Shown here: positions 14,096-62,020 of the stretch, piece after piece
Position numbering within the stretch: position 1 is the first letter of the stretch
Layout: each line of letters starts with the position of its first letter
NCBI GenBank assembly: GCA_041660305.1
Contig: JBAZWO010000001.1
Coordinates: 290,268-354,267 of the forward strand
DNA length: 64,000 nucleotides
Reading direction: 5' to 3'
From: Patescibacteria group bacterium
GTDB lineage: Bacteria > Patescibacteriota > Patescibacteriia > UBA9570
Notes under the pieces: generated by a model
What the model was told of the DNA's origin: nothing
Seen by the model: only the letters and a program-made list of their open reading frames with translations
The model's database searches: none
Position numbers and translations under genes: made by a program

Positions 14096-14318
14096 CTACC
14101 TCACCTCCCGGCCTCCTCTCCTTAAAACTACCTTCCTCCCTAACCCTCCTTCCTCAAAGGCAGGAGGGAATAATTTCTTTAATTATCATTTCTTATCCCC
14201 CTCTCTCCTTAGAGGAGAGAGGGGGTTGGGGGGAGTGAGGTAGGTTGTTTAGGGGAGAGGGGGTTAGGCCATCGGCTCTGAGGCTCTGGCTCGAAGAGGG
14301 GAGAGGTAGTCTACCTCC
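14096..14318. repeat. GC-rich modular palindromic element, composite locus R3 (inverted partner of R4)
   Basis: It starts CTACCTCACCTCCC and ends GAGAGGTAG/CTACCTCC. About 170 bp match the reverse complement of 15677-15857. The rpsR stop codon (14311-14313) lies at its edge. Confidence 0.85.
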
Positions 14319-15676: not shown

Positions 15677-15857
15677 CTACCTCTATCCCCAACCCTTTCC
15701 CCTAAACAACCTACCTCACTCCCCCAACCCCCTCTCTCCTCTAAGGAGAGAGGGGTATAAGAAATGATAATTAAAGAAATTATTCCCTCCTGCCTTTGAG
15801 GAAGGAGGGTTAGGGAAGAAGGTAGTTTTAAGGAGAGGGGGCTAGGGGGTGAGGTAG
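15677..15857. repeat. GC-rich modular palindromic element, composite locus R4 (inverted partner of R3)
   Basis: It starts CTACCTCTATCCCC and ends GGGGGTGAGGTAG. It is the reverse complement of most of R3, including the AT-rich core aataatttctttaattatcatttcttat. Confidence 0.85.
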
Positions 15858-15861
15858 TATT

Positions 15862-18212: not shown

Positions 18213-18244
18213 TTCCCCCTTTAGGGGGTTAGGGGGCTGGGGCC
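18213..18244. repeat. GC-rich palindromic element fragment, locus R5 (gatC tail / gatA leader)
   Basis: Contains the CCCCC-TTTA-GGGGG hairpin (18215-18228) plus TTAGGGGGCTGGGGCC. The gatC stop (18221-18223) sits in the hairpin loop. Confidence 0.7.
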
Positions 18245-18523
18245 AAATACTCCTTTAACTTTTAAATGATCTTCCGCTGTTTCAATGGCCGATTTAAACA
18301 TTTGTTCTCTAGTAAACTGATAATCAATAACATCCGGCCTGGTTTTATTGGCTAGGCCGGTAATTTGATACGTGGGCGTAACTTGGCTAGTATCCACCTG
18401 ATTTAATTGTTCCACAAATTTTAAAATAGTAGCAAATTCACCTTGAAAATGCTTAATTTCCGCTTCAGTTAGGTTAATTCTAGATAGTTTAGCAATTTTT
18501 TCCACTTCGGCTTTAGATAACAT
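18221..18523 (-). CDS. gatC: Glutamyl-tRNA(Gln) amidotransferase subunit C
   Basis: 100 aa with a GatC-like sequence. The last residues (GPSPLTP) are encoded by repeat R5. Confidence 0.85.
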   Translation of the reverse strand: MLSKAEVEKIAKLSRINLTEAEIKHFQGEFATILKFVEQLNQVDTSQVTPTYQITGLANKTRPDVIDYQFTREQMFKSAIETAEDHLKVKGVFGPSPLTP

Positions 18524-18529
18524 GGAATG

Positions 18530-18535
18530 ATTATA
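18530..18535 (-). promoter_or_regulatory. TATAAT -10 box 6 nt upstream of the gatC ATG (leaderless candidate)
   Basis: The minus strand reads ...TATACTATAATCATTCC-ATG. There is no SD. Confidence 0.4.
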
Positions 18536-18655
18536 GTATATTTTAACAAATATTGAAACTCACCTACTGCTTGCACATTTTATGTTAACTTGTTAAACTG
18601 GCGCGGTTATAAAAACCGCTCTTTGAAAAAAATTATGCATCCGGTAATTAAATTT

Positions 18656-18740
18656 GACCCTTCCCCCTACCCCCTTCCCTGCAAGGCAGGGGGTTTAACT
18701 CCATCCCTCTTGGCAGGAGGGAGGGCTGGGGTGGGAGGTC
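18656..18740. repeat. GC-rich palindromic element, locus R6 (inverted partner of R7)
   Basis: 85 bp, GACCCTTCCCCCTACCCCC...GGGGTGGGAGGTC. It differs at only 2 positions from the reverse complement of 21109-21193. Confidence 0.9.
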
Positions 18741-18859
18741 GAATCTATTTCTCGGGTGCATAATGGAAGATGCACAAGACTTAACTTGTTTAAGCTTCGT
18801 TCACAATTGGGTTGAATGAAGCAAAAATAAGTTGAGCAACAAACTTCCTAGAAAGGATT

Positions 18860-20700
18860 ATCGTAAAAGCCCAGCGGTTGCTGGTGCTTGGTCACAATAA
18901 CAATAATGTAATTGTGACCCGGTATGTTGTCAGCCAACTGTTCGAACCGCCGTGAGAAACCAATGACACAAAATAGTGTGTCTTGATTCGCTCGCGGCAA
19001 CTTGGGAGAAAGCAAAATGCAACTGAAACGTCTTTGGGGTTTAATACCCCTGAGTCTGTTGATGGTTGGTGTACAGGAGTGTCCGACCACGACAACGCCG
19101 CCGGAGTATGAGCGCACTATCATCAACTATGACCATGTCGCACTCAACTTTGATCCGAGTGGCACAATCACGGTCGATGCAGACGTGACCGTGGCGGATG
19201 GTGATCAGGGTGTGGCAGTCGATGTTGGGGACTTTGTTCCAACCTACTCCACAACAACATTCCACCAGGACGGTGCATATGAAATCTACGACGTACCGAC
19301 CGGTGGTGAGCAGACATTCCACTTATCCGGCAACACGACCTTGCAAAATTCGTGGCAGGGAGTCTCCTACATGGTTCACCCCGACTACGGATATTCAAGT
19401 GTACAATCGATCATCTGGCCGTACAACGGTGTCAACGTCGGTCCCTACCAGAACGACTCATTCTCGCGCCCTGATGGTATGGTGAAGTTCACATGGGGGG
19501 GAATCTACGGACTTGAAAACATGTTCGGTGGTCAGACACCCATCATCCTGCGAGGTGACACGGAAGGACCTGGTGGATCTGCCTACACGGCATTCGCATT
19601 GGCAGCAAGTCCTGACTACGACCTTTACGAAGTAGGGACGTCAAACGGAGGGGTTCTTCTCCGTTCGTACTATTTCAAATCTGATCCAGAACAGCCAGGA
19701 AAAGTCGCCTATTTGAACCGATACACACTATCTATGATGAACTGGCTCGAGAAAAACTTCGGACCCTATCCTCAAACCAAGTACACGAGCGCATCAGTTC
19801 TGCTCGGAACCGGCGGTGGTATGGAAGGTCCAGTCGTCATGTATGACAATCTCAACAGTGGCGACGCTTCCTGGTACGGCGGTGACCATGAACCGCCGCA
19901 CGCCTTCATCGGGACCAGTGTTAGAACAGGAGACCCTATCTACCAAGCCTTCAATGAGGGTACGGTAGTGAGTCTACAGACCGCTCATCTGAACGAAGAC
20001 GGTAGCCCAGCAGATTTCAAAACCGTCACTGACTTCCTCTGTGATATGATTCCCTACGCTGCTACGTATGAAAGGAACTTTGTGCCTTGGCCGGCAGGAC
20101 AGGAAGGAATGTATGCTCTGGATGAGATGACACGAGGAAGTACGTACTACAAAACTGGATTTATCTCGTGGATGCTCCAGGAAGAGCGCGGATACTCCGG
20201 CTACGTGAAAGGTGTGGACTTGTTTATTCAGCGACATCGAGACAATACCTTTACGGATGAGGAATTCATTCGCGACATGACCGATGGGTACGAAGGTGCT
20301 GTCAGCTATGACGAAATCTACACCAGATATGCTGAATTGCAAAACCCTAATTCTGTGTACCCTGCGGGCTACGAAACCTACTGTCCAGACGCCGCAAAAA
20401 CGTGGAAAACCCGCGACGAAAACTACTGGAAGATGCATGGCATCACATATCGTCTTCATCCGGGCATGCCGGCCTGGGGCGAGTACGTGAACTAAAACCA
20501 TCCTCCCCTTTTTTTTGAGAAGCACCCGGCGCTGACCTGAAAGCGCCGTGATCGGAGGATCTTCGCTTCTCCCTACCCAACAGGCCGCTCACCTGATCTC
20601 CCCGCCTTTCCCACCGAAAGCCGCGCGACGATAAAATGAGCAAATTCCTAGTGTTCATCTCTGCTACGCTAAAGCTACGCAGAAGGTGGGTAGTAGATAA
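18860..20700. other. Compositional island 1 (GC-rich relative to flanks)
   Basis: The line starting at 19081 has 34/60 G+C, against 17-19/60 in typical host lines. Boundaries are approximate. Confidence 0.7.
19017..20495 (+). CDS. Secreted M1-family (gluzincin) zinc metallopeptidase
   Basis: HEPPH followed exactly 18 residues later by E (FNEG) gives the HExxH-X18-E gluzincin motif. The upstream GGGMEG resembles the GxMEN exopeptidase motif. There is an N-terminal signal (MQLKRLWGLIPLSLLMVGVQEC). The ATG at 19017 is preferred over the track's TTG at 19002 because GGGAGA lies 7 nt upstream. Confidence 0.75.
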   Translation: MQLKRLWGLIPLSLLMVGVQECPTTTTPPEYERTIINYDHVALNFDPSGTITVDADVTVADGDQGVAVDVGDFVPTYSTTTFHQDGAYEIYDVPTGGEQTFHLSGNTTLQNSWQGVSYMVHPDYGYSSVQSIIWPYNGVNVGPYQNDSFSRPDGMVKFTWGGIYGLENMFGGQTPIILRGDTEGPGGSAYTAFALAASPDYDLYEVGTSNGGVLLRSYYFKSDPEQPGKVAYLNRYTLSMMNWLEKNFGPYPQTKYTSASVLLGTGGGMEGPVVMYDNLNSGDASWYGGDHEPPHAFIGTSVRTGDPIYQAFNEGTVVSLQTAHLNEDGSPADFKTVTDFLCDMIPYAATYERNFVPWPAGQEGMYALDEMTRGSTYYKTGFISWMLQEERGYSGYVKGVDLFIQRHRDNTFTDEEFIRDMTDGYEGAVSYDEIYTRYAELQNPNSVYPAGYETYCPDAAKTWKTRDENYWKMHGITYRLHPGMPAWGEYVN

Positions 20701-20725
20701 TATCTCAAAGGTTTTGGGATAAAAA

Positions 20726-21100
20726 TTATATTGATAACGTATCCAAAATGATTTTTAGTACACTATCAATATTTTTTAATATCTTATCATTACTAAATCG
20801 CAGAATATTACAGCCATATAATTGTAATACAAAATCACGCCCTTGATCTCGTTGCTGTTGATAGTTATGAATCTCACCATCAACTTCAATGACTAATTTC
20901 TTTTCGTGACAATAAAAATCAACAATAGAAGAATACAAAGGATATTGCCTACGAAATTTATATCCTAACATTTTACTACGCTGCAAATAATACCATAATT
21001 TCTCTTCTGCTTGAGTAGGATTATGACGTAAACTCTTAGCAAGATAATGCAGTTTATTTTGCAAAGTAATATCTCGAGATTGTTTGGATTGTGTTAACAT
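20726..21100 (-). CDS. DUF559 / Vsr-like endonuclease-domain protein
   Basis: Contains LWYYLQRSKMLGYKFRRQYPLYSSIVDFYCHEKKLVIEVDGEIH...ILRF, typical of DUF559. The ORF-track N-terminus MAGGRAGEGGQTH is read-through into repeat R7, so the ATG at 21100-21098 is preferred. Composition is host-like and AT-rich. Confidence 0.75.
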   Translation of the reverse strand: MLTQSKQSRDITLQNKLHYLAKSLRHNPTQAEEKLWYYLQRSKMLGYKFRRQYPLYSSIVDFYCHEKKLVIEVDGEIHNYQQQRDQGRDFVLQLYGCNILRFSNDKILKNIDSVLKIILDTLSI

Positions 21101-21108
21101 GTGCGTTT

Positions 21109-21193
21109 GACCTCCCTCCCCAGCCCTCCCTCCTGCCAAGAGGGAGGGAGTTAAACCCCCTGCCTTGCAGGGAAGGGGGTAGGGGGAAGGGTC
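21109..21193. repeat. GC-rich palindromic element, locus R7 (inverted partner of R6)
   Basis: 85 bp, GACCTCCCTCCCCAGCC...GGGGGAAGGGTC. The ligA TGA stop (21192-21194) overlaps its last bases. Confidence 0.9.
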
Positions 21194-23180
21194 ATTTTAT
21201 TAATTTTAGGAATTCCTGTTCAGATAAAATTTTCACTCCTAATTTTTTCGCTGTATTATATTTCGAGCCCGGCTCTTCTCCGGCTACTACATAATCGGTG
21301 CTTTTGCTCACGCTACTGGAAATTTTGCCGCCGGCTTGGCGGATTTTAGCTTTGGCTTCGTCCCGCAACATGGTTTTTAGAGTGCCGGTTAGCACAAAAG
21401 TTTTGCCGGTTATCTTATTGGTAGAGACAGATTGCAATCTGTCTCTACCAATTACGGATTGCACCTGAACATATTTCAATAATTCATCTAATTGAGCTTG
21501 CTGTTTTTTATTATGAAAATAATCATAAACACTTTTGGCTACTATTGGACCAATTTCTGGAATAGCTTGTAATTGTTCCAAATTATTATTACGTAATGCG
21601 GTGATGGTGGTAAATTGATTTGCTAACAAAATAGCGGTTTCTTCACCTACATGGCGAATACCTAAGGCATATAACAAACGAGGCAATGATACGTTTCGAG
21701 CTTGTTGAATTTCTTGCACCAAATTAGCGGCCGATTTATCGGCAAACCGATCTAGCGGCTCTAATACTACTTTGGTTAATTTAAAAATATCAGCAAAATT
21801 ATTCACTAACCCGGCTTGCATTAATTGATCGATTATTTTCGGTCCTAAACCTTCAATATCCAAGCCTTTTTTAGACACAAAATGATATAAGCGCTCTTGT
21901 TCCTGGGCAAAACACGCTGGATTAGTACAGTAATACGCTACTTCACCGGTTTTACGCGTTACTGCCGCGCCACAAACCGGACATTTATTTGGAAACATGT
22001 ATGGCTTACTATGTTTTGGTCGTAATGCCGGCAACACCTGCACTACATCGGGAATAATATCACCGGCTTTTTCTATAATTACCGTATCGCCTATTCGAAC
22101 ATCTAGCCGCTTGATTTCATCTTCATTATGCAATGTAGCCCGAGATACTGTAGAGCCAGCTACGGTAACCGGTCGTAAATGCGCTACCGGTGTTAACGCG
22201 CCAGTGCGCCCTACTTGCACTTGAATGTCTGCTACAATAGTAGTGGTTTGTTGTGCCGGGAATTTGTATGCCACTGCTCCGCGTGGCGCTTTACCTACCA
22301 CGCCTAATTGTTTAAAAATATTAATATTATCCACATTTATCACCATACCGTCTATCCAATAGGGTAATTTTTCTCTTATTTTCATTAATTGTTCGTAATG
22401 TTTTTGTACAGCGGCTAAATTATTACAACGTAAATTATTAGCATTAGACGGAAAACCTAATGTTTGTAAATATTCGTGCACCGCGGAATGATTTAAAATG
22501 GCCAAATTGGTTGCGCAATCATAGGCCATAAAGCTCAATTTCCTAGCCGCTACTACTTTAGGATCCAGCTGGCGAATACTGCCGGCGGCTACGTTTCTTG
22601 GGTTAGCGAATTTTTGTTCCGCTGTTTTATTAATCAGCTCAAATTGCTGTTTGGTCATGTACACTTCTCCTCTTACTTCTATGTGTTCTGGGTAATCCCC
22701 TTGCAACTGTAACGGTATTGCCTCAATGGTTTTTAAATTTTCGGTAACATCTTCACCAATTTTACCATCGCCCCGGGTGGAACCACGAACAAATTTACCT
22801 TGTTTATATTCTAACGCTACCGCTAAACCGTCCATTTTTATTTCTGTGTAATAAGCTAATGGCTCGTTAGTAAGCTTGGTTAAACGCTGTTCCCAAGCTT
22901 GTAATTCTGCAAAAGAAAAAATGTCGTTCAATGATAGCATTTTTACCGCGTGTGTTACTTTGGAAAAATTAGCCAATGGCAAACCACCAACTCGCTGACT
23001 GGGTGAATCCGGTGTAATTAAATCTGGATATTGATTTTCTAACTGTGTTAATTCATGTTTTAAAGAATCCAGCGCCGCTTCCGAAATTTCTTGTTTATCT
23101 AATACATGATAAAGATAACGATAATGCTCTATTTCTTTACACAGCTGTTTTAGACGAGTTTTAGCTTGGGATTTGGTCAT
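21192..23180 (-). CDS. ligA: NAD-dependent DNA ligase
   Basis: 662 aa with the adenylation motif EIKMDGLAV, a Zn finger CPVCG...CTNPAC, HhH repeats and a C-terminal BRCT domain (GKTFVLTGTL). Confidence 0.93.
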   Translation of the reverse strand: MTKSQAKTRLKQLCKEIEHYRYLYHVLDKQEISEAALDSLKHELTQLENQYPDLITPDSPSQRVGGLPLANFSKVTHAVKMLSLNDIFSFAELQAWEQRLTKLTNEPLAYYTEIKMDGLAVALEYKQGKFVRGSTRGDGKIGEDVTENLKTIEAIPLQLQGDYPEHIEVRGEVYMTKQQFELINKTAEQKFANPRNVAAGSIRQLDPKVVAARKLSFMAYDCATNLAILNHSAVHEYLQTLGFPSNANNLRCNNLAAVQKHYEQLMKIREKLPYWIDGMVINVDNINIFKQLGVVGKAPRGAVAYKFPAQQTTTIVADIQVQVGRTGALTPVAHLRPVTVAGSTVSRATLHNEDEIKRLDVRIGDTVIIEKAGDIIPDVVQVLPALRPKHSKPYMFPNKCPVCGAAVTRKTGEVAYYCTNPACFAQEQERLYHFVSKKGLDIEGLGPKIIDQLMQAGLVNNFADIFKLTKVVLEPLDRFADKSAANLVQEIQQARNVSLPRLLYALGIRHVGEETAILLANQFTTITALRNNNLEQLQAIPEIGPIVAKSVYDYFHNKKQQAQLDELLKYVQVQSVIGRDRLQSVSTNKITGKTFVLTGTLKTMLRDEAKAKIRQAGGKISSSVSKSTDYVVAGEEPGSKYNTAKKLGVKILSEQEFLKLIK
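21418..21451. repeat. 34-bp perfect palindrome inside ligA (GTAGAGAC family)
   Basis: TTGGTAGAGACAGATTG|CAATCTGTCTCTACCAA. It encodes IGRDRLQSVSTN in the linker before the BRCT domain. Confidence 0.85.
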
Positions 23181-23205: not shown

Positions 23206-23279
23206 TCCCCCTCTCCTCAGAGGAGAGGGGGTTAGGGGGTGAGGTAGGATGTTTAGGGGAGGTAAAGAGGGAGAGGTAG
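23206..23279. repeat. GC-rich modular palindromic element, locus R8
   Basis: Contains CCCCCTCTCC-TCAGA-GGAGAGGGGG, then TTAGGGGGTGAGGTAG and GAGAGGTAG. It lies between the ligA start and the stop of the last pilin gene. Confidence 0.8.
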
Positions 23280-23282
23280 TTA

Positions 23283-24116
23283 TTATTTCGTTACCTTCTC
23301 CTCCGAAAATAACACATAATCAAAATAATTATTTAGAGGCGACCGCCATAACATGTTCGCCGTAACGGTTTGCTGATATTGCCCGGTGGTGCTAACACTA
23401 CTGATGGTAATTGTTTCTTTTAGCGGCACAAATTTAGTAGAGTCATTAATATCTAAAGCTTTAACTGATAAATCTGTAATATCACAATACAAGGCTTTTA
23501 AGCGCAGCTTATAAAGATAATCACGAGTTAAACCAAAACTACACCCATTATTGCATTCGTTATATACCCAACGTGTTTTTTGCATAGCTGTATTTTTAGT
23601 TTCACTATCCCATTCTTGTACCGTCCAAGCGGTGTCACTAATTTCTAATGTATTCACGTGCCCATCTCCACAGCTATTATTTGTCCAAGAAAACTGCACT
23701 GAACCAATATTATCCGGTACAGTAGTTAAGTAACTTAATGTTTTATTATAACTTTCCGTATAAAGATGCAGCTGATTCACTTCATTCTCAGCTAACGATA
23801 ATATTAATTCTTCATCCTGTGCTTGCGTAATTATGGTTTTACCAGCCGTAATAGTTTGTAACCGTTCATTCAGTGTAGTTGGATCTATTGTTTTAGCTGT
23901 TCGCGCCGACTGGGCATAATACAAACCCTGTTCCACTCCACTTTCAGCCGTCATAAAACCTAACGTGCTTTGCTTATAACTGGTAACAAAGCGTAAATTA
24001 TTTAAAATAATTAACGCTAACGTGCTAATAATCGCCGCAAAAATTATCAGCATAATCATTACAATTACTAACACCGAGCCGGCTTGATTAGTGGATAATT
24101 TAGCTTTAGCGTGCAT
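23283..24116 (-). CDS. PilX-like minor pilus protein (N-terminal hydrophobic helix)
   Basis: 277 aa with N-terminus NQAGSVLVIVMIMLIIFAAIISTLALI. It is the last gene of the pilin cluster. Confidence 0.5.
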   Translation of the reverse strand: MHAKAKLSTNQAGSVLVIVMIMLIIFAAIISTLALIILNNLRFVTSYKQSTLGFMTAESGVEQGLYYAQSARTAKTIDPTTLNERLQTITAGKTIITQAQDEELILSLAENEVNQLHLYTESYNKTLSYLTTVPDNIGSVQFSWTNNSCGDGHVNTLEISDTAWTVQEWDSETKNTAMQKTRWVYNECNNGCSFGLTRDYLYKLRLKALYCDITDLSVKALDINDSTKFVPLKETITISSVSTTGQYQQTVTANMLWRSPLNNYFDYVLFSEEKVTK

Positions 24117-24648
24117 AGTATCTACTAGTAGTTAAAGTTTGAAAATGCGTAGTAATTTTTGGATCATCAGCGCGCTGGGCATCTATTACCATCATTACTG
24201 CCGGCTGATTATTAACTGAACTACCATCGGCTTGAATAACTGTTGGGTCAGCGTTTGGATAAATATAAAATTGCAAGTTAGTTATTTTAACATTATTTCC
24301 GGTTAACAAATTAGTATCTATAGTAATATTACCATTTGTAGATAACTCTATTATATGCGTTTCACCCGTAACCGTGGTAACCGTTAAAAAATCAGTATAC
24401 GCTGTAGCTGCGGTATAATTAAAACTTTTTCCTTCCCGAATATAGCGCGCAATTTCACTGGTAGCATAAGTTACTTGTTCTTCCAGTTGTTTTTTACGAA
24501 TTTGCTGCAATGGCCCGCGTAAAAACATAATGAGTAATTGCATAACTGTAACTATAACAATAGCAAACACGGCTGTGGCCACTAACATTTCCACTACGGT
24601 AAAACCTTCTACTCGTTTATGTTTATTTAGTAATGATAGGATCGGCAT
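24106..24648 (-). CDS. Minor pilin with prepilin-type N-terminal cleavage/methylation motif
   Basis: 180 aa with KRVEG|FTVVEMLVATAVFAIVIV. Confidence 0.7.
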   Translation of the reverse strand: MPILSLLNKHKRVEGFTVVEMLVATAVFAIVIVTVMQLLIMFLRGPLQQIRKKQLEEQVTYATSEIARYIREGKSFNYTAATAYTDFLTVTTVTGETHIIELSTNGNITIDTNLLTGNNVKITNLQFYIYPNADPTVIQADGSSVNNQPAVMMVIDAQRADDPKITTHFQTLTTSRYYAR

Positions 24649-25327
24649 ATTTCCAATTATATAATTTTTCAGTAAAAATACGTTCTTGCTGTTCTCCGGC
24701 CTGTTGCCATATTACCTGTACCATAACCTGCACACCAATATCAATGTATCCACCGTCAACACAAGTAAGCGCTTCTGCACGCACTATTTCTGCCTGTGTT
24801 AAATCAGGTTCATTCGGATTAAAACAAATGGGAAATAACGTTACTAAGCGTTTAAATGGTGTGGCTGTTAAACCGATAAAATCATTGCCGCTGATTTGTA
24901 GATAATTTCCAGCCGTATCTTGCCGCACAATGGCTCTAGCATCCGATTCGTTGTCTACCGAAAAATCAAATTTAATAGCTAAATTAGGATCAACCTCGCT
25001 AGGTGTCCAAATATAGATAGCACTATAATCAACATTATCTGTGACAGTTTTACCATACAAACCTGTGTTATATCCTAATAAATTACTAGTAGCACTATCG
25101 GTAATACCAGCTTCCCGTTTTAGCCAGTTGCTATCGCGCACATAACGCGCCGCCTCGATAGCTTCCTGGCCAAGCTGAGTAGCTCTAGTTTCTGCTAACG
25201 CTCTAGAACTAGTAGACCATAAATTTACCAACAACGAAGCTAAACTAACAACACCAATTAAGATAATAGCAATCGCCATTAATGATTCTAATAAAGTTTG
25301 GCCGGATTGATTAGGTTGTTTCAACAT
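24623..25327 (-). CDS. Minor pilin with prepilin-type N-terminal motif
   Basis: 234 aa with NQSG|QTLLESLMAIAIILIGV. Confidence 0.65.
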   Translation of the reverse strand: MLKQPNQSGQTLLESLMAIAIILIGVVSLASLLVNLWSTSSRALAETRATQLGQEAIEAARYVRDSNWLKREAGITDSATSNLLGYNTGLYGKTVTDNVDYSAIYIWTPSEVDPNLAIKFDFSVDNESDARAIVRQDTAGNYLQISGNDFIGLTATPFKRLVTLFPICFNPNEPDLTQAEIVRAEALTCVDGGYIDIGVQVMVQVIWQQAGEQQERIFTEKLYNWKYADPIITK

Positions 25328-25333
25328 AATTTA

Positions 25334-25876
25334 TTACTCAATTAACGCGCTAGGATAATATAATGTTACTGGATTTTTTATTTGTTTTGTAGCTACATCT
25401 TGAAATACCACTTGAACGTTACCATTACTATTATAAACCGTGCCCCAATCTTTAGCATCAATAGTTACGGCTGTACTATTATTCCCTAAATAAAACATAA
25501 TGTCTTTAAAAATACCATCTGGTTCAACTTTTGTGTCAAAGTTTGTTGTAGACAAAATAACATCTTCAGTATTAGCTTGGTAACTTGGCGCATTATTTAA
25601 TTCCGCGTATAAGTTAATGGCCTTGTCCGTGCTATCAATGAACACGCCGTAGGCTTGCGGCGCTTGATTATTACAACACGTTTTTCCTGTTCTGGCATAC
25701 GTGCGCGCTAAGGTTAAGCTAGAACGATATTGATTCGCCGCTTCGGTAACCAAATCTTCCGGACTGCGCTGGCGAAAACTTAATAACGTAATAGTAGATA
25801 ACACCGCTATCATGCCCATTACGGTTACTAATTCAACTAATGAAAAGCCTGTTTTATCGCCACACATATAACACAT
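25334..25876 (-). CDS. Minor pilin with prepilin-type N-terminal motif (FimT/GspH-like)
   Basis: 180 aa with DKTG|FSLVELVTVMGMIAVLS. Confidence 0.7.
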   Translation of the reverse strand: MCYMCGDKTGFSLVELVTVMGMIAVLSTITLLSFRQRSPEDLVTEAANQYRSSLTLARTYARTGKTCCNNQAPQAYGVFIDSTDKAINLYAELNNAPSYQANTEDVILSTTNFDTKVEPDGIFKDIMFYLGNNSTAVTIDAKDWGTVYNSNGNVQVVFQDVATKQIKNPVTLYYPSALIE

Positions 25877-26630
25877 TGTGCATATACCAATAAACTAACG
25901 GCGTACCGTATAATAATCCTAACCAAGTGGCCACGCTTAAAAATGTACCAAACGGCAGACGATCTTGCATGGTTTTGCGGCGCCAAATTAACAACGGCAC
26001 CGCTACTACCGTGCCCAGCGCGTAAGCCAACAATAACGTAACTGTAATATTTGGCCAGCCTACCATAGCCCCCATTAGCGCCCCAAAACGCACATCGCCT
26101 CCGCCTACCCATTTGCCACGTGAAATTAAAAACTGCATTAAGAAAAAACCAGCTCCGGTTATTATACCAAGCATTATATTAATAGGATTCATGCCTAATA
26201 ATAAACCGCCTATTATTGCTATCATAATACCCGGCAACGTAAACCTATCCGGCAACAAATAATATTTTAAATCATACACAAATAACACTATTAACAACGC
26301 GCTGTACACGGCATAAATTGTTAATTTAAGCGGCTCTGCCCAAAACCAGGCACCTAGTATTCCAAAAATAATCGCCGTAACGCTTTCCACTACTGGATAC
26401 TGCCAAGCAATACCAGCTTTACAATGCAAACACCGGCCGCGAATGCCGATATACGAAGCTACCGGAAATAATTCGTACCAACTTAATGTAGTTAAACAAG
26501 CCGGGCAGTGCGACCGTCCCAGCCAAGATTCTTTACTGTTCGTGCGCAATATCACCACATTCAAAAAGCTTCCTATACCTAAACCAGCTAATACCGTAAT
26601 AATAATGATAACTATCGGCCAAAGTAACAT
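25854..26630 (-). CDS. pilD: Prepilin peptidase (A24 family)
   Basis: 258 aa, polytopic. It has the Cys motif CPACLTTL...GRCLHCKA and the catalytic-Asp context GGGDVRFGALMG. Confidence 0.9.
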   Translation of the reverse strand: MLLWPIVIIIITVLAGLGIGSFLNVVILRTNSKESWLGRSHCPACLTTLSWYELFPVASYIGIRGRCLHCKAGIAWQYPVVESVTAIIFGILGAWFWAEPLKLTIYAVYSALLIVLFVYDLKYYLLPDRFTLPGIMIAIIGGLLLGMNPINIMLGIITGAGFFLMQFLISRGKWVGGGDVRFGALMGAMVGWPNITVTLLLAYALGTVVAVPLLIWRRKTMQDRLPFGTFLSVATWLGLLYGTPLVYWYMHNVLYVWR

Positions 26631-40675: not shown

Positions 40676-40852
40676 ATTATAACATTTACGCTAACATGCA
40701 CATGATTTACATACAAGCGTGAATAGTCGACGGCGCTGAAATATTTATTTTTACCAATCCGCTGCACAAAAACTGGTTGTGCACTGGATTGGTGAGGAGG
40801 CGCAGGCAGGACACAAGATAAATTGTGCACGCGCCTCCCCTATCGTCTGCGA

Positions 40853-41602
40853 CTAGCCGTCCTGGCCATTGCAGTTTTGATCGATGTCGTCACCGTAAGG
40901 ATCGGGGGCGCCGGAGTAAATAGTTGGATCATTGTCATTGCAATCTGCTGCTGGCGACATAGGATCACACGACCCGCTGTAACCATCACCGTCACCATCG
41001 GGATCATCTTTGATCCCATTGCAGTTATTGTCCATACCATTACACATTTCTGGTGCCCCTGGATATATGTTCCGGTTATTGTCATTGCAGTCCTGGTTAT
41101 TTGTTACATAACCATATGGAGTGCTACAAGCTTGTGTAAAAACTTCAGGACTACCATAACTGTCATCATCAGCATCCTGGTAGTATGTGTTCTCCACATC
41201 TTCATCCACCTGACCATCACAATCATTATCCATAATGTCACAGCTCTCCGCAGCACCAGGATAAGAGTTAGTATTAGTATCGTCACAGTCATCTGTAGCA
41301 GTTACCCATCCTGGCAGCGGAGCACATGCCTCTCCTACTGCCACGGAAGTTCCGTATCCGTCGTTGTCCGCGTCCGGGTAATAAATGGTCTTCACACTAT
41401 CGTCAACCACGCCATCACAGTCATCATCCATCTCGTTGCAGCTTTCGGCCGCACCAGGATAGACCTGGTCATTCTGGTCATTGCAGTCGCCGTCAGCGAC
41501 CGAATAACCATCGACATCGACATCTTCAGTATCGGGACAGCCCTCTGCCCCAACGAACACAAACGCCGCCAAAAGAGGCAGCGCCTTCAGCCAGTTTCTC
41601 AT
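40853..41602 (-). CDS. Secreted Cys/Asp-rich repeat protein (MopE-type putative metal-binding motif, 4 repeats)
   Basis: The repeat is D.DGY....DC(N/D)D.....YPGA.E.C(N/D).(M/I)D(N/D)(D/N)C(D/N)G..D. The signal is MRNWLKALPLLAAFVFVGAEGC. The ATG at 41602 is preferred over the track's 41623 because AAGGAGG lies 5 nt upstream. Confidence 0.7.
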   Translation of the reverse strand: MRNWLKALPLLAAFVFVGAEGCPDTEDVDVDGYSVADGDCNDQNDQVYPGAAESCNEMDDDCDGVVDDSVKTIYYPDADNDGYGTSVAVGEACAPLPGWVTATDDCDDTNTNSYPGAAESCDIMDNDCDGQVDEDVENTYYQDADDDSYGSPEVFTQACSTPYGYVTNNQDCNDNNRNIYPGAPEMCNGMDNNCNGIKDDPDGDGDGYSGSCDPMSPAADCNDNDPTIYSGAPDPYGDDIDQNCNGQDG

Positions 41603-41914
41603 GGCTTCCTCCTTAAAAAACATTATCTCTATGTAAACAAGTATCCTGAAAAAATTATCAGGTTACTTGGAATTTTTAAAGAACAAAAAAATCCCCTGCT
41701 GTATATATAAAAGGATTAACTAAAATAATACTAGGGTATGTTGGCGACGGCGCTGCTAAAAAAACATCATTTTAGCTGTTGTAGTTAATAACCTAACGCC
41801 TGGGGATAAAATTTATACCGACGGCGCTAAAAATGTCTGGAACTATTCAATAAATCCACTAGGAACCTCTTCAAGAGATTCATACTGGATTTAGAGGCGG
41901 CGGGTTGAAATATA

Positions 41915-42667
41915 TTATTTCAAACACCGGCGCCTCCTTGTTATGGTGAGAAAAAGGGCGGTAAGAACCACCGCCAGACCCAGGGGCGGTCTGGCGGCCG
42001 ACTGCGTCGTAGAGCACGAGCAGCCGGGAACGGGGGGCGGCGAGACGAACTGATCGTCGTCGCCCGTGGTGTCGTCATCCCCCGCAGTGGCCGGGGGGGT
42101 GGGAGAAACGTCCGGAGTCGGCGAGACCTCCGGCGTGGGGGTGGGCGAGTCCCCCGTGGCATCGTCGTCGCCCGTCGAGTCGTCATCCCCGCCTTCAGGG
42201 GTCGGGGAGACGGGATCCGGAGTCGGCGTGGCCGTGGGCTCCGGGGTGGGGGGAGGCGAGTCCCCCGTGGCATCGTCATCGCCCGTGGCGTCATCGTCAC
42301 CCGCCACCGGTGTGGCTGGGGGGGTGGGAGAAACGTCCGGAGTCGGCGAGACCTCCGGCGTGGGGGTCGGCTCCGGAGTCGGACTGACCTCCGGGATGGG
42401 GGTGGAGATACAGTCCCCCGCGACCGACCCCTCGTCGGTCAGACCATCACAGTCGTTGTCTATACTGTCGCAAACTTCGGGAGCTCCCGGATATGTGTCC
42501 GGGTCGTCATCCCGACAGTCCCCAGTTGCACAACTAGGGTAGTCTGCCGAACACGACGACCCGTAGGCTCCCCATCCGTCGGCATCCTCATCGGTCCAAA
42601 CGGCCGACGCGGACGGGACGACGTATAGTGCTCCGAGAATCGTAAGGATCATGAACAAGTGCTTCAT
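41915..42667 (-). CDS. Secreted Pro/Thr-rich repeat protein with one MopE-type motif and a Cys-containing C-terminal sorting-signal-like tail
   Basis: 250 aa with signal MKHLFMILTILGALYVVPSASA and a tandem repeat EVSPTPDVSPTPPAT...GDDDxTGDDD. The C-terminus reads GCSCS, then a hydrophobic helix, then RRRRCLK. An AAGGAGGG SD is present. Confidence 0.65.
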   Translation of the reverse strand: MKHLFMILTILGALYVVPSASAVWTDEDADGWGAYGSSCSADYPSCATGDCRDDDPDTYPGAPEVCDSIDNDCDGLTDEGSVAGDCISTPIPEVSPTPEPTPTPEVSPTPDVSPTPPATPVAGDDDATGDDDATGDSPPPTPEPTATPTPDPVSPTPEGGDDDSTGDDDATGDSPTPTPEVSPTPDVSPTPPATAGDDDTTGDDDQFVSPPPVPGCSCSTTQSAARPPLGLAVVLTALFLTITRRRRCLK

Positions 42668-42759
42668 GGTCCCTCCTTATCTTTGCCAGCCCTCTTCACC
42701 GTATCCTGCACCATGCAAGAATTCAGATCAGAAAGCTGGACTTGTTGAAACAGAACATA

Positions 42760-42807
42760 CTACCTCTATCACCCCAGCCCCCTTTCCCCTAAACAGGGGA
42801 AAGGGGG
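42760..42807. repeat. GC-rich modular palindromic element, locus R9
   Basis: CTACCTCTATCACCCCAG then the imperfect hairpin CCCCCTTTCCCC-TAAA-CAGGGGAAAGGGGG (arms unequal by one base, so the stem has one unpaired/mismatched position). It sits at the right edge of island 2. Confidence 0.8.
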
Positions 42808-48394: not shown

Positions 48395-50902
48395 ATGGCT
48401 TTAGATATTTTAAATAAATTTACCAATCATTTAAAAAACACGCTGGTAGAAGCAATTAATGTTTCCATTCGCTTAAAACATCCTCAAGTATTGCCAGTAC
48501 ATTTATTAATTGGTTTAAGCAAACAAACCGGCAGTATTGCCACAGAAATTATTAATCAACACAAGCTTACTACTAAAACTTTACAGCCTCATTTAGAACA
48601 CATGCGCTGGATTAACCAGCAACGCATGTATACCCTACCACAATTATCTGCTGAAGCAATTCGCATTCTAGAACACGCAGCTGTAATTGCCTTTGAATGT
48701 AAACACAAGTATGTTGGCACCGAACATCTGTTGTTAAGTTTATTAGATTTAGCTAATGACCAATTAACTCATATATTTAAAGCTCATCAGGTAAATTTAG
48801 AACAGATCCGTAAACAAATTATTAATATATTAAATAGTACTTCGCGGTTTCCGGATGTGGCTAATTTATTTCAAGAGGATGCTGAAGTGGTAGTAGAAAC
48901 TGCCACTGGAGAGCAGTTGTCTCCCCGCGCTGTTACTAATCTGGGCACACCGGCTTTAGATTTTTTCTGTGTTAATCTAACCGATGCTACCATTCAGAAA
49001 ACTATCGATCCAGTAATTGGCCGCTCGGCCGAAATTGAGCAATTAATTCATGTATTATCTCGGCGCACCAAAAATAACCCTGTACTATTAGGTGAGCCTG
49101 GCGTAGGCAAAACCGCTATTATTGAAGGCTTAGCCAAACAAATTTTACAAGGCAATGTACCGGCTATATTATTACGTAAAAAAATTTACCGCTTAGATTT
49201 AAGCTTAGTGGTAGCCGGCTCTATGTATCGTGGTGAATTTGAGGCTCGCTTTAAACAAATTATTGAAGAATTAAAAATTCATACCAATATTATTTTATTT
49301 ATTGATGAAATCCACACTATTATTGGTGCCGGCGGCTTAGGCGCCAATGCCATGGACGCGGCTAATATCTTAAAGCCTGGTTTAGCGCGCGGCGAAATTC
49401 GCTGCATTGGTGCTACTACTATTAATGAGTACCAAAAATACATTGAGTCCGATGCTGCGTTAGAGCGTAGGTTTAGACCAATTTACGTAACCGAACCAAG
49501 CAGTGCTGAAGCTATTACCGTACTGCAAGGTATTAAAAACAGCTACGAAAAATTTCATCGCGTAACTATTTCCAACGAAGCTATCACCGCAGCGGTTAAT
49601 TTTTCTACTCGTTACATTCAAGATAAATTTTTACCAGATAAAGCTATTGATTTAATCGATGAAGCGGCCGCTCGTTATAAAGTTACTACTCCTACTAACC
49701 CTTTAGAAAAAAACCTACTAGCTTTAGAACAACAACTAGAAACCATTCAAACCCAAAAATTAACTTTAGTAAAACAAGAAAAATTTGAGCAGGTGTTGGC
49801 TTTAAAAAAGCAAGAAAAACAGCTTAAAGACCAATTAGCCACTGTACATAATAAACTAACTGCTACCCAGCCGGTTGTACATGGTATTATTACCGCTTTA
49901 GATATTGCTCAAGTAATTGCGCAAAATACTGGCATTCCTCTGCCTGAATTGGTTACTCCAGAAAAAAAACGTTTACTTAATTTACAAACCGAATTAAATA
50001 AGCGCGTCATTGGCCAAACCGACGCTACTGCTCTAGTAGCTAAATTAATTCAACGTTCCCGCACTGGTTTAGCTAGGCCAAATCGCCCAATTGGTTCGTT
50101 TATGTTTTTAGGGCCCTCCGGCGTAGGAAAAACGGAACTAGCTAAAACACTGGCTAACCAAGTATTTGGCAGTGAAAAAAATATGTTGCGCCTAGACATG
50201 TCTGAATTTTCTGAAAGCTTTACCATCTCAAAATTAATTGGTGCGCCAGCCGGCTATGTTGGCTATAAAGACGGCGCCAAATTAACCGATCAAATTAAAC
50301 ATAAGCCCTATGCTTTGGTACTCTTTGATGAAATTGAAAAGGCTCATCCTGATGTTTTTAATATTTTATTACAAATATTAGATGAGGGTACTTTAACTGA
50401 TGCCGCTGGTAAAAAAATTAACTTTAAAAACACTATTATTGTCTTAACTTCCAATATCGGTTTACAACATTTTCAACAGCAGGCTGCTTTAGGCTTTCAA
50501 ACAAAAACCACCAACAAACTTACTAATGAAAAAATAACTAAACAAGTAACCAGTGAATTACATGATGTGTTTAAGCCAGAATTTTTAAATCGCATCGATA
50601 ATATAGTAATATTTAAACCACTCACAAAAACTAGTTTAATTAAAATAGTCACTTTACAACTTAACGAATTGTTTGCCCGAGCTAAAGACCAACATATTTA
50701 TTTAACCGCTACTCTAGCGTTACACCGCCACCTGGCTAATATTAGCTACACGCCAACTGAAGGAGCCCGCGCTATTCATCACCATATTCAAAACGATATT
50801 GAAAATGTCCTCGCCGAAAAAATCCTTAAAGATGAAATTAAATCTGGTGATAAAGTTACTATAGATTTTAAACAAGGGAAAATAGTGTTTACGAAAAAAT
50901 AA
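48395..50902 (+). CDS. clpC: Clp/Hsp100 AAA+ chaperone, ClpC-type
   Basis: 835 aa with Clp_N repeats, two Walker A motifs (GEPGVGKT, GPSGVGKT), a short UVR-like middle motif and an LGF tripeptide loop (ALGFQ) that suggests ClpP docking. Confidence 0.85.
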   Translation: MALDILNKFTNHLKNTLVEAINVSIRLKHPQVLPVHLLIGLSKQTGSIATEIINQHKLTTKTLQPHLEHMRWINQQRMYTLPQLSAEAIRILEHAAVIAFECKHKYVGTEHLLLSLLDLANDQLTHIFKAHQVNLEQIRKQIINILNSTSRFPDVANLFQEDAEVVVETATGEQLSPRAVTNLGTPALDFFCVNLTDATIQKTIDPVIGRSAEIEQLIHVLSRRTKNNPVLLGEPGVGKTAIIEGLAKQILQGNVPAILLRKKIYRLDLSLVVAGSMYRGEFEARFKQIIEELKIHTNIILFIDEIHTIIGAGGLGANAMDAANILKPGLARGEIRCIGATTINEYQKYIESDAALERRFRPIYVTEPSSAEAITVLQGIKNSYEKFHRVTISNEAITAAVNFSTRYIQDKFLPDKAIDLIDEAAARYKVTTPTNPLEKNLLALEQQLETIQTQKLTLVKQEKFEQVLALKKQEKQLKDQLATVHNKLTATQPVVHGIITALDIAQVIAQNTGIPLPELVTPEKKRLLNLQTELNKRVIGQTDATALVAKLIQRSRTGLARPNRPIGSFMFLGPSGVGKTELAKTLANQVFGSEKNMLRLDMSEFSESFTISKLIGAPAGYVGYKDGAKLTDQIKHKPYALVLFDEIEKAHPDVFNILLQILDEGTLTDAAGKKINFKNTIIVLTSNIGLQHFQQQAALGFQTKTTNKLTNEKITKQVTSELHDVFKPEFLNRIDNIVIFKPLTKTSLIKIVTLQLNELFARAKDQHIYLTATLALHRHLANISYTPTEGARAIHHHIQNDIENVLAEKILKDEIKSGDKVTIDFKQGKIVFTKK

Positions 50903-50905
50903 ATC

Positions 50906-51067
50906 CTACCTCACCTCCCGGCCTCCTCTCCTCTACCTTCCATCCCCGACCCTTCCCTCCTATAAAGAGGGAAGGGAGAATTACGAAATTATTCCCTCCT
51001 GCCTTAGAGGAAGGAGGGTTAGGGAGGAAGGTAGTTTTAAGGAGAAGGGGGCTAGGGGGAGAGGTAG
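50906..51067. repeat. GC-rich modular palindromic element, composite locus R10
   Basis: The 5' end matches the 5' end of R3 (CTACCTCACCTCCCGGCCTCCTCTCCT). The 3' half matches the 3' half of R4 (ATTATTCCCTCCTGCCTT.GAGGAAGGAGGGTTAGGGA...GAGGTAG). Confidence 0.85.
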
Positions 51068-51072
51068 GAAGT

Positions 51073-54391: not shown

Positions 54392-56502
54392 TGCTGACCG
54401 GCCTGCACGGCGTTGGCACGGCTATACAACAAAAACTGCGCCGGTTAGCTATTACTACTTTAACCGATTTGTTATATCACTTTCCGGCTCATTACGAGGA
54501 TTTTTCAAATATCACCGCTATTACTGCTTGCGCAACGGATCAAGCCGTTACCATATTAGGCACAATAAAAAAAATTAGCACACGGCGTAGCTGGAAACGG
54601 CGCCGGTTTACCATTACCGAAGCTACCATTACAGATGCTAGTGGTGACATGAGGGTAATTTGGTTTAATCAAGCATATATTGCCGAACAACTACCGGCCA
54701 ACACTTTGGTTTATTTATCCGGAAAAATAACCCTTTACCAAAAAAAATTAGTGCTTAATAACCCTGTTTATGAACTATACAAAACCGAAACGGTTCATAC
54801 GGCCAGAATTGTACCGCGTTACGCGTTAACTACCGGTTTAACCCATAAACAACTACGCTATTTTATAAAACAAGCCCTACAAATACAAACTACTAATTAC
54901 TCCATTATTAAAGACTGGCTACCAGCTAATATATTAGATCAATATCAATTACTGCCCATTACTCAAGCTCTGCAAGCCATTCATTTTCCAAATAGCTGGG
55001 CAGAATTAGAGCAAGCCAAATATCGTTTAGGGTTTGATGAATTATTATTAGTACTGTTATTTGTACAAGCTACGCGCGCTAGTTTAGCTAAAGAAACGGC
55101 TCCTAGTATCCCGTTTGCCAAAACGCCTACTAAAACATTAGTGGATCGGCTCCCTTTTCAGCTCACGAATGATCAACGCGTAGCTGCTTGGGATATTATT
55201 AAAGACTTACAGCACACTACGCCCATGAACCGCTTACTAGAAGGCGATGTGGGCTCTGGTAAAACCGTAGTGGCCGCGTTGGCTATGTACAACGTAGCCC
55301 TAGCTTGTTATCAAGCCGTGCTTATGGCGCCTACTGAATTATTAGCCGAACAGCATTATCACACGATTAAACAATTATTTAGCCATACTAATATTAACGT
55401 GGGCTTGTGGACGCGTAGTAAAAAGATTGCTGCCTCGTTTCCAAGCGTCCTACCTCACCCCCCAACCCCCTCTCCTCTGAGGAGAGGGGGAGAATTTCTC
55501 CCTTCTCCTTTGAGGAGAAGGGCTGGGGATGAGGTAGGTAGCGGCGAGATTATTATTGGCACCCAAGCTTTGATTCAAAAAAATGTTCATTTTCCAAAAT
55601 TGGCGTTGGTGGTGGTGGATGAACAACACCGTTTTGGTGTTACCCAACGACAACAGCTAAAACAAGTAGCGACGCCCCGCGGGGCGTCTCTACTGACCCC
55701 TCATTTATTATCCATGACCGCTACGCCGATTCCCCGATCACTCGCCTTAACTATTTACGGTGATTTAGATTTATCATTATTAGCCCAGCTCCCAAAAAAC
55801 CGTAAACCTATTATTACTAAATTGTTTTCCACTGAACAACGTTTAGTTTTACAAAAAATTATTACTGAACACTTAGCTAATCAAGCGCAAATTTATGTAG
55901 TAGTACCAAGAATTGAAGAAAAAGATGACGGCGCTCGTTCTGTACAGACTGAGTATAAACACTGGCAAAAATTATTTCCAAATTATCGAATAGCTTATTT
56001 ACACGGCCAATTGCCAACCGAAGAAAAACAAGCGGTTATGGAGCAATTCCGCGCTGGAAAAATTGCGGTGTTAATAACTACCACGGTAATTGAAGTAGGG
56101 GTAGACGTACCTAATGCTACCGTAATGATTATAGAAGGGGCTGAACACTTTGGTCTAGCGCAGCTACATCAATTACGCGGTCGCGTGGGACGCTCACACC
56201 AACAATCCTATTGCTATGTTTGTACTGACGTGGCGTATCCCATAAAACGTTTGCAATATTTTGTAAAAAATCATAATGGGTTTGCCTTAGCAGACTACGA
56301 TTTAAAACTGCGCGGCCCCGGCGCTGTCTACGGCGCCATCCAATCCGGCTACTTCAACCAATTTAAAATAGCTACCTTAAGTAACACCAAACAACTCCAA
56401 CAAGTTAAAGCCGCTGCCGCCACACTTTACCCAAACATTAAACGCTACCCCGCTTTACACGCCAAACTGCAACACATGATAAAGCGGGTGCATTTAGAGT
56501 GA
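54388..56502 (+). CDS. recG: ATP-dependent DNA helicase RecG (carrying two palindromic-element insertions)
   Basis: 704 aa with a wedge domain, motif I GDVGSGKT, DEQHRFGV, TATPIPRSLA and QLRGRVGR. The reading frame is intact across the repeat at 55450-55537. Confidence 0.9.
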   Translation: MMLTGLHGVGTAIQQKLRRLAITTLTDLLYHFPAHYEDFSNITAITACATDQAVTILGTIKKISTRRSWKRRRFTITEATITDASGDMRVIWFNQAYIAEQLPANTLVYLSGKITLYQKKLVLNNPVYELYKTETVHTARIVPRYALTTGLTHKQLRYFIKQALQIQTTNYSIIKDWLPANILDQYQLLPITQALQAIHFPNSWAELEQAKYRLGFDELLLVLLFVQATRASLAKETAPSIPFAKTPTKTLVDRLPFQLTNDQRVAAWDIIKDLQHTTPMNRLLEGDVGSGKTVVAALAMYNVALACYQAVLMAPTELLAEQHYHTIKQLFSHTNINVGLWTRSKKIAASFPSVLPHPPTPSPLRRGGEFLPSPLRRRAGDEVGSGEIIIGTQALIQKNVHFPKLALVVVDEQHRFGVTQRQQLKQVATPRGASLLTPHLLSMTATPIPRSLALTIYGDLDLSLLAQLPKNRKPIITKLFSTEQRLVLQKIITEHLANQAQIYVVVPRIEEKDDGARSVQTEYKHWQKLFPNYRIAYLHGQLPTEEKQAVMEQFRAGKIAVLITTTVIEVGVDVPNATVMIIEGAEHFGLAQLHQLRGRVGRSHQQSYCYVCTDVAYPIKRLQYFVKNHNGFALADYDLKLRGPGAVYGAIQSGYFNQFKIATLSNTKQLQQVKAAAATLYPNIKRYPALHAKLQHMIKRVHLE
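55450..55537. repeat. GC-rich modular palindromic element, locus R11, inside the recG ORF
   Basis: CTACCTCACCCCCC...GGGGATGAGGTAG with hairpins CCCCCTCTCC-TCTGA-GGAGAGGGGG and CCCTTCTCC-TTTGA-GGAGAAGGG. It is translated as LPHPPTPSPLRRGGEFLPSPLRRRAGDEVG. Confidence 0.85.
55666..55693. repeat. GTAGAGAC-family palindrome inside recG
   Basis: GTAGCGACGCCCC|GCGGGGCGTCTCTAC, with one stem mismatch. It encodes VATPRGASLL between helicase motifs II and III. Confidence 0.75.
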
Positions 56503-61960: not shown

Positions 61961-61975
61961 ATTGATTGATTTATT

Positions 61976-62019: not shown

Positions 62020-62020
62020 A

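Follow-up and report, generated by a model that had tools for sequence, protein, structure and literature searches.

The DNA analysed here is a 64-kb stretch, referred to as the window, from a metagenome-assembled genome (MAG) of a Patescibacteria bacterium. In this genome, ligA and gatC are separated by a segment that holds a GC-rich open reading frame (ORF), listed at NCBI as 'hypothetical protein WCW27_05635 [Patescibacteria group bacterium]' (P0001), together with a DUF559 nuclease-fold gene. The segment is bounded by an inverted repeat and, judged against related genomes, is an insertion. By remote homology, the product of the GC-rich gene belongs to peptidase family M1, as a two-domain and very divergent member. 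An earlier interpretation made from the letters alone (the sequence-only reading) had described the region as a secreted M1-family zinc peptidase, recently acquired by a reduced-genome organism from a high-GC neighbour or host; the assignment to a Patescibacteria MAG agrees with the reduced-genome part of this description. The elements of the inserted unit are as follows:

18655-18743: left arm of the inverted repeat, 89 nucleotides (nt), G/C-rich and internally palindromic, related to the genome's intergenic G-rich repeats
18744-19016, + strand: 5' leader of the peptidase gene, with hairpin 1 (18890-18919), hairpin 2 (18965-18982) and the ribosome-binding site (RBS) GGGAGA
18890-18919: palindrome of hairpin 1, GGTCACAAT-N12-ATTGTGACC, exact, at -127 to -98 relative to the ATG
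18965-18982: palindrome of hairpin 2, GACACA-N6-TGTGTC, exact, at -52 to -35 relative to the ATG
19004-19009, + strand: RBS GGGAGA, 7 nt before the ATG
19017-20495, + strand: peptidase ORF of 492 amino acids (aa), ATG at 19017 and TAA at 20493-20495, the sole ORF of the GC-rich region
Residues 1-21 of the peptidase: signal-type N-terminus, K4/R5 followed by hydrophobic residues 6-19
19812-19829, + strand: GGGMEG motif, residues 266-271
19887-19901, + strand: HEPPH motif, residues 291-295
19956-19958, + strand: E314, third zinc ligand, 18 residues beyond the second His of HEPPH
20145-20147, + strand: Tyr377, catalytic Tyr
20496-20650, + strand: 3' untranslated stretch, C-rich, 55% G+C, with nested hairpins (RNA fold z=-3.7)
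20527-20548: hairpin CGGCGCT-N8-AGCGCCG, exact, downstream of the ORF
20726-21100, - strand: DUF559 gene (Vsr-like PD-(D/E)XK nuclease fold), Pfam PF04480 at E 2.3e-34 and NCBIfam PRK09767 at E 1.4e-20
21106-21194: right arm of the inverted repeat, 89 nt, whose last three bases (21192-21194) are the ligA stop codon

The sequence-only reading had located both palindromes and the downstream hairpin exactly. Its single ORF also stands, with the GGGAGA RBS, the HEPPH-X18-E site and the GGGMEG motif, although the protein has 492 rather than 493 residues. The HExxH-X18-E arrangement arose by chance in 13 of 20,000 shuffles of the peptidase sequence. Antisense ORFs (e.g. 19974-20525) were set aside as by-products of high GC, as their extent is not conserved in either of the homologous loci described below.

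An insertion between ligA and gatC

The ligA-gatC gap in the window measures 2668 nt. The inverted-repeat-bounded unit (18655-21194) makes up 2540 nt of this, with a remainder of 131 nt that falls within the range of gaps found in relatives, which were located through GatA and LigA. These gaps are 78 nt in a Patescibacteria MAG (L009; LigA 63% and GatA 66% identical to the window in aa), 6 nt in L089 (LigA 66%, GatA 59%), and about 147 nt in L090, a 4.5-kb contig that keeps ligA-gatC and whose LigA is 51% identical. Both L009 and L089 retain the gene order pilD ... orf277-ligA-gatC-gatA-response regulator-ndk. In a further relative, L010, the ligA-gatC site is occupied by about 800 nt of other DNA (436-1233), consisting of a stretch of about 60% GC and a PIN/VapC-like ORF, and the site therefore tolerates insertions. 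Although labelled Gammaproteobacteria, the L010 record is probably mis-binned, as the Patescibacteria genes of the window are the closest to its own.

The two 89-nt arms are 97% complementary, and no other full copy of the repeat exists within the 64-kb window. The unit is flanked by TTAAATT and TTTTATT, which form no clear target-site duplication. A role of the arms as transposon ends was rejected, given the lack of a transposase and a target duplication and the presence of related repeats beside housekeeping genes; they may instead be recombination substrates or bystanders.

The unit is a compositional mosaic that joins the GC-rich peptidase ORF to an AT-rich DUF559 gene. The latter is a full-length member of the DUF559/Vsr-like PD-(D/E)XK nuclease genes and a low-GC outlier (29% G+C; 0.20 G+C at third codon positions, GC3), biased in the opposite direction to the peptidase ORF. 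Its upstream region is the right repeat arm, into which the reading frame would extend if started at a TTG. No published evidence of DNA mobilisation by DUF559 was found, and its link to the peptidase is maybe positional only. With PADLOC and PHROGs, the peptidase had no match and DUF559 only weak ones of nuclease type, and a reading of the unit as a defence island was rejected on these grounds.

The junctions of the unit are crossed by two assemblies. Besides the window's own 491-kb contig, a separately assembled 13-kb ENA MEGAHIT contig (L003) matches 12,380 nt of the window at 100% identity and spans both junctions; gatA and gatC are at one side, DUF559 and ligA at the other. In addition, the stretch 18673-21167 is matched at 100% identity by a Logan contig (L004; run SRR18595301) that ends inside both repeat arms, where a short-k assembly is expected to break. 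A chimeric join is thus unlikely from these sequences.

Homologues and identity of the peptidase

Searches covered about 15 billion proteins in total. Only two close homologues were found by a word-indexed search of 5.8 billion clusters, namely P0002 (on contig L001) and P0003 (on contig L002), which are 46-48% identical to the window protein; the three proteins are mutually 47-69% identical. When 1.84 billion representatives were searched exhaustively with a profile, nothing below E 1e-10 emerged beyond the gene's own cluster. Relatives were also absent from GTDB species representatives, JGI metagenome contigs and IMG/VR, in pattern-based scans that are limited by the patterns used, and from plasmids and phages searched with tblastn.

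Single-sequence comparisons do not assign the protein to a family. Pfam returned no family at E up to 1, and the sole NCBIfam match (pepN_proteo, 11 bits) falls far short of its curated cut-off of 718. Profiles were more informative. The exhaustive profile search yielded 40 weak matches (E 4e-9 to 1e-3), and all 10 of those scanned (E 4e-9 to 6.5e-5) are Pfam Peptidase_M1. A profile built from the three homologues and run against PDB sequences found aminopeptidase N (PepN 5dll) at E 9e-9, in an alignment that pairs GGCME with GAMEN, HEPGH with HEYFH, NEG with KEG (the third zinc ligand) and YYRAG with VYNKG (the catalytic Tyr). With hhalign, a comparison to 12 compact M1 proteins reached 99.86% probability (E 2.5e-31, 413 columns) over residues 28-457, a span that includes the catalytic domain as well as the N-terminal one. 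When the protein is aligned with M1 proteins (45 sequences), H291, E292, H295, E314 and Y377 are invariant and G267, G268, M269 and E270 nearly so. The last position of the GXMEN motif is Gly in the window protein and Val in P0002 and P0003, instead of Asn.

AlphaFold2 supplied with this 45-sequence alignment produced a model with a predicted local distance difference test (pLDDT) score of 75 and a predicted template-modelling (pTM) score of 0.81. The best 50 PDB matches listed by Foldseek for this model are all M1 aminopeptidases (E about 4e-16, template-modelling score 0.60-0.65), including ERAP1, ERAP2, PepN and APN over about 470-500 columns. Because it was built from an M1 alignment, the model is not independent evidence of the fold. 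The M1 homology and the conservation of catalytic residues are nevertheless evident from the alignments, and the earlier call of an M1-type gluzincin is borne out by the profile searches, hhalign and the 45-sequence alignment.

The window protein resembles known M1 enzymes (MEROPS M1; PF17900 + PF01433; PepN 5dll/2dq6, ERAP1, ERAP2, LTA4H) in having N-terminal beta and thermolysin-like catalytic domains, and its HEXXH-X18-E zinc site, G-G-M-E exopeptidase motif and catalytic Tyr align with theirs. However, it is only about 13-20% identical to them, under the Pfam and NCBIfam thresholds, and lacks the C-terminal helical domain (ERAP1_C/HEAT) of the long M1 enzymes. Its zinc motif (HEPPH, or HEPGH in P0002 and P0003) puts a Pro into the zinc helix, another residue stands in for the Asn of GXMEN, and an additional tail of about 40 residues carries an invariant Cys; there is also an N-terminal export-type signal. 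A closer match in architecture and length is provided by compact two-domain M1 metallopeptidases of 420-530 aa, which are common among the remote matches and supply the best remote profile matches. Examples include 'M1 family metallopeptidase [Streptomyces lanatus]' (P0220, 457 aa) and 'M1 family peptidase [Bacteroidota]' (the P0029 cluster). These are 17-25% identical to the window protein and, unlike it, are recognised by PF01433.

In enzymes of this type, the Glu of the GGME motif binds the free amino group of the substrate, the residue corresponding to E292 acts as the general base and that corresponding to Tyr377 stabilises the transition state. As the zinc ligands, E292, Tyr377 and the GGME Glu are all conserved, zinc aminopeptidase would be the most likely activity of the protein.

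The peptidase is also likely exported. Its N-terminus carries K4 and R5 followed by its only strongly hydrophobic stretch (residues 6-19), in line with the export-type signal proposed earlier. This is followed by Cys22, which is invariant in P0001, P0002 and P0003, and by a Thr/Pro linker (PTTTTPP). Tethering to the cell surface via Cys22 and the linker is possible.

Composition of the GC-rich island

The window as a whole has 38.8% G+C, the region 18860-20700 has 51.2% and the peptidase ORF 51.4%. Values for 200-nt windows inside the island lie between 47 and 55.5%, and the island edges are AT-rich, with 28% on the left (18400-18599) and 27.5-31% on the right (20700-21099). The count of 34 G+C in the 60 letters of the line at 19081 was reproduced. 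The jump from 30% to 55% reported by the sequence-only reading is therefore accurate locally, but the genome background is about 38% rather than 30%.

The compositional anomaly of the ORF lies at silent sites. Its GC3 is 0.564, against 0.297±0.050 and a maximum of 0.44 among 45 other window genes (z=+5.3), and its synonymous-codon log-likelihood also deviates (z=-9.5 against the same genes). For instance, Leu is encoded by TTA at 2 of 29 positions in the ORF and at 1101 of 1762 in background genes, and Ile by ATC at 14 of 18 and 128 of 1347, respectively. The tetranucleotide distance of the ORF ranks second in the window, behind a second island at 41-42 kb. The comparison of codon and tetranucleotide usage that had been proposed earlier thus marks the gene as an outlier among window genes. 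At the protein level, the peptidase is Lys-poor (2.4% vs 6.2%) and shifted towards Gly, Ala, Arg and Pro.

The cassette in other genomes

Close relatives in the host's own lineage, which the sequence-only reading had named as a finding that would speak against foreign origin, do exist. An RNase H gene beside the L001 cassette encodes a protein 77% identical to Patescibacteria and Kerfeldbacteria MAG proteins and 68% identical to P0082, which shares its 491,640-nt longest contig with P0001, the window gene. By these sequence matches, L001 is a contig of Kerfeldbacteria-like Patescibacteria. The host of L002, which carries P0003, is probably also a Patescibacteria bacterium, as suggested by composition and shared flanks. 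The confinement of homologues to relatives of the host lineage counts against a foreign high-GC donor.

The cassette is all that L001 and L002 have in common, and their flanking genes differ. A contig with 93% DNA identity to L001 (L005) loses this similarity precisely where RNase H ends, and in a more distant relative (L006) glycosyltransferase genes come after RNase H; the region that holds the L001 cassette thus varies between strains. In L002, the left edge of the cassette directly adjoins part of an IS481-family transposase, an N-terminal fragment (1626-2174, - strand; NCBIfam E 1.7e-9). A link between contigs L002 and L005 through a 24-nt end identity was rejected as too short.

The peptidase ORFs of L001 and L002 are 70% identical in DNA and 69% in protein. 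Both have 59% G+C and a GC3 of 0.72-0.73, against 0.30-0.42 in flanking genes and a context of about 36-46% GC. Their synonymous sites are saturated (proportion of synonymous differences, pS, 0.70; synonymous divergence, dS, about 2), the non-synonymous divergence (dN) is 0.26, and they are under purifying selection. The GC3 excess of the peptidase over its flanking genes is about +0.27 in the window and about +0.3 to +0.4 in L001 and L002. Two readings fit the L001/L002 comparison. Either the two copies grew apart in a GC-rich reservoir that has not been sampled, each reaching its present genome very recently along with an AT-rich leader, or high GC3 is a stable property of the gene inside low-GC Patescibacteria. 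The gene family is tiny and so far found only in Kerfeldbacteria-like Patescibacteria; every copy occupies a variable locus of its own and exceeds its surroundings in GC.

Upstream of the ORF, L001 (1865-2143) and L002 (2200-2494) share an AT-rich leader (32-37% GC) of about 280 nt that is 88-95% identical. Substitutions cluster in two hairpins and include five fully compensatory pair changes, with conserved G·U pairs, which point to a sense-strand RNA structure. A sigma-70-like TTGCTA-N16-TATACT can be recognised by eye in this leader, which has no Rfam match. The window leader is also strongly folded (18870-19019: -57.6 kcal/mol vs -36.2±3.5 for shuffles, z=-6.2) and has two hairpins at similar distances from the ATG. 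However, it cannot be aligned with the L001 and L002 leaders at sequence level, so homology of the leaders rests only on the similar positions of the two hairpins. A role in mRNA stabilisation or translational control is a guess.

Downstream, L001 (3683-3789) and L002 (4111-4216) share a 3' element of 108 nt that is 94% identical and more conserved than the coding region. It consists of a long hairpin (AAACCCCTCC...GGAGGGGTTT) followed by ATCATTT. This element was absent from IMG/VR, and neither it nor the leader core occurs elsewhere in 93 fetched loci. In the window, the hairpins at 20496-20650 have no subsequent T-run, and a scan of the + strand found no canonical terminator there. An Rfam scan of 18400-21400, L001 and L002 gave only sub-threshold matches and no known riboswitch or leader. 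The best of these, psRNA6 (a Nitrosomonas sRNA) at the 3' island edge (20584-20828; 24.6 bits vs a gathering score of 60, E 3e-4), is most likely due to chance.

Origin and function of the unit

The reading preferred here, to which we give a probability of roughly 0.65, is that of an accessory insertion in ligA-gatC-gatA that carries an exported, divergent M1 aminopeptidase, on a cassette exchanged among Patescibacteria or obtained from an unsampled reservoir. An inverted-repeat-bounded unit of 2540 nt would have entered the conserved gene cluster, bringing in the DUF559 nuclease-fold gene and the GC-rich two-domain M1 peptidase. The hydrophobic signal, invariant Cys and Thr/Pro linker would then allow export and cell-surface tethering, and the surface enzyme could trim peptides for an organism reliant on imported amino acids. 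By the proposed route of transfer, the cassette would have circulated among Patescibacteria or been drawn from the reservoir, rather than having been a recent gift of an ordinary high-GC host.

A survey of 125 Patescibacteria genomes described hundreds of genomic islands and transferred genes, and found that most single-gene transfers took place between Patescibacteria (mSystems 2025, PMC12455944), a pattern that the window case fits. The window unit differs from those islands in being bounded by 89-nt inverted repeats, without integrase or transposase, and the survey mentions peptidases 0 times.

Several points weigh against the reading of an exchanged accessory cassette. The family has three members only, and the host of one (L002) is assigned from indirect features. 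A GC3 excess as strong as this would be expected after recent transfer from a GC-rich donor. No transposase, integrase or target-site duplication was found at the unit, in which DUF559 is the only other gene, and related G-rich repeats also flank housekeeping genes; the inverted repeats may thus be bystanders and not the vehicle. With regard to the protein, single-sequence Pfam and NCBIfam do not recognise it, an AlphaFold model from the three sequences alone was unusable (pLDDT 32), and the usable model was built on the M1 alignment. Cys22 is preceded by VQE in the window protein and ISE in the homologues, neither of which forms a canonical lipobox (consensus [LVI][ASTVI][GAS]C). Finally, HEP[PG]H places a Pro within the zinc-binding helix and the Asn of GXMEN has become Gly or Val, and peptidase activity could be altered or lost as a result.

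Recent acquisition from a high-GC neighbour or host outside Patescibacteria, with the GC excess as an un-ameliorated relic, is unlikely, although much of the composition is as it predicts: GC3 is 0.56 against 0.30, codon usage (z=-9.5) and tetranucleotides are deviant, and the protein is Lys-poor and shifted to Gly, Ala, Arg and Pro. The second GC-rich island of the window, which encodes MopE-motif secreted proteins, and the absence of the gene from the orthologous site of relatives are also in its favour. However, no candidate donor lineage was found in any collection searched. Beyond the gene's own cluster, the 1.84 billion representatives held nothing below E 1e-10; GTDB representatives, JGI contigs and IMG/VR (in the pattern-limited scans), plasmids and phages held no relatives; and the only two homologues among 5.8 billion clusters both lie on low-GC contigs, one evidently and the other probably from Patescibacteria. 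In these, ORFs of 59% GC are joined to 88-95% identical leaders of 32-37% GC, and GC3 has stayed at 0.72-0.73 despite saturation at synonymous sites (pS 0.70). Horizontal acquisition, as an insertion relative to related genomes, is thus retained from the sequence-only reading, but the 'recent' date and the high-GC donor are not. An assembly chimera, or a contaminating fragment joined to a Patescibacteria scaffold, is extremely improbable. Sharp composition edges and the ends of L004 inside both repeat arms would suit it, but such breaks are expected of short-k assembly at an 89-nt repeat, L003 runs through both junctions at 100% identity with gatA/gatC and DUF559/ligA on their respective sides, and a GC-rich ORF in an AT-rich context recurs in two further samples (L001, L002).

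The persistence of high GC3 in L001 and L002 (0.72-0.73 at dS of about 2, flanks 0.30-0.42), together with a GC3 excess over flanks of roughly similar size at all three loci (about +0.27 for the window, about +0.3 to +0.4 for L001 and L002), could mean that the gene is ancestral to the lineage and was lost from relatives, its high GC being an intrinsic equilibrium under GC-biased gene conversion or mRNA-level selection. This is very improbable, as the gene is absent at the site in four relatives, one with a different insert, the homologues lie at different loci in strain-variable regions, and the excess DNA is an inverted-repeat-bounded unit. A more speculative and rather doubtful reading treats the peptidase as cargo of a self-contained expression cassette, in which a GC-rich ORF lies between an AT-rich, highly structured leader and a conserved 3' hairpin element, and which circulates among Kerfeldbacteria-like Patescibacteria. 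High GC3 would then be a maintained equilibrium, through GC-biased gene conversion or mRNA selection, and not a donor relic, and the leader would be a new cis-regulatory RNA. On the functional side, a catalytically dead M1-fold protein for binding or adhesion is improbable. The Pro-Pro or Pro-Gly within HEXXH, the lost Asn of GXMEN and the lack of a C-terminal domain, by which long M1 enzymes close their substrate cavity, would be compatible with it. Against this, the zinc ligands, catalytic Glu, Tyr and GGME Glu are invariant in three homologues that are 47-69% identical and under purifying selection, and compact two-domain M1 proteins (420-530 aa) are common among the remote matches.

Most amino acids cannot be synthesised by Patescibacteria, which live attached to other cells, so that an exported aminopeptidase is a plausible nutrient-scavenging tool for them. 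The peptidase would then exemplify how such tools are gained as small cassettes. It also extends family M1 by a subfamily with a proline-containing zinc motif that is missed by curated models and is represented by three sequences among about 15 billion proteins. As the gene is GC-rich in every known host beside AT-rich conserved flanks, it cautions against equating a 'GC island' with a recent GC-rich gift. Gene-transfer islands in Patescibacteria and compact M1 peptidases were already known, and current understanding of them is unchanged; the only unusual aspects are the persistent GC-richness and the conserved leader, which rest on three loci.

Other features of the window

A second and stronger GC-rich island lies at 40823-42800. 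It contains two ORFs on the - strand, at 40853-41623 (49% GC) and 41915-42667 (66% GC, GC3 0.73, codon usage z=-13), both encoding secreted proteins with Pfam Cu-binding_MopE motifs. Tandem repeats occur inside the island at 42053-42407, and a G-rich repeat (42772-42801) adjoins it.

G-rich palindromic intergenic repeats with GGGGG-N2-3-GGGGG cores are scattered through the window. Copies were found at the following positions:

14096-14261: G-rich repeat
15677-15860: G-rich repeat
18213-18242: G-rich repeat
23206-23254: G-rich repeat
50891-51070: G-rich repeat
55435-55494: G-rich repeat
61975-62022: G-rich repeat

Two inverted copies of 137 nt (14096-14232 and 15721-15857), 96% complementary to each other, lie on either side of rpsF-ssb, and synteny with L009 and L089 stops directly after ndk, at this repeat. 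The G-rich repeats may mark rearrangement breakpoints.

Downstream of ligA, a conserved block of small ORFs (23283-26630) ends with a prepilin peptidase (A24) gene and includes a faint N_methyl match. The block is syntenic in L009 and L089 and is probably a type IV pilus-like cluster. Towards the end of the window, a 291-nt direct repeat (57418-57708 and 59644-59934) is 97% identical between copies 2.2 kb apart. The copies lie inside two - strand ORFs (56503-57876 and 58624-60057), which suggests that these are recently duplicated or converted paralogues.

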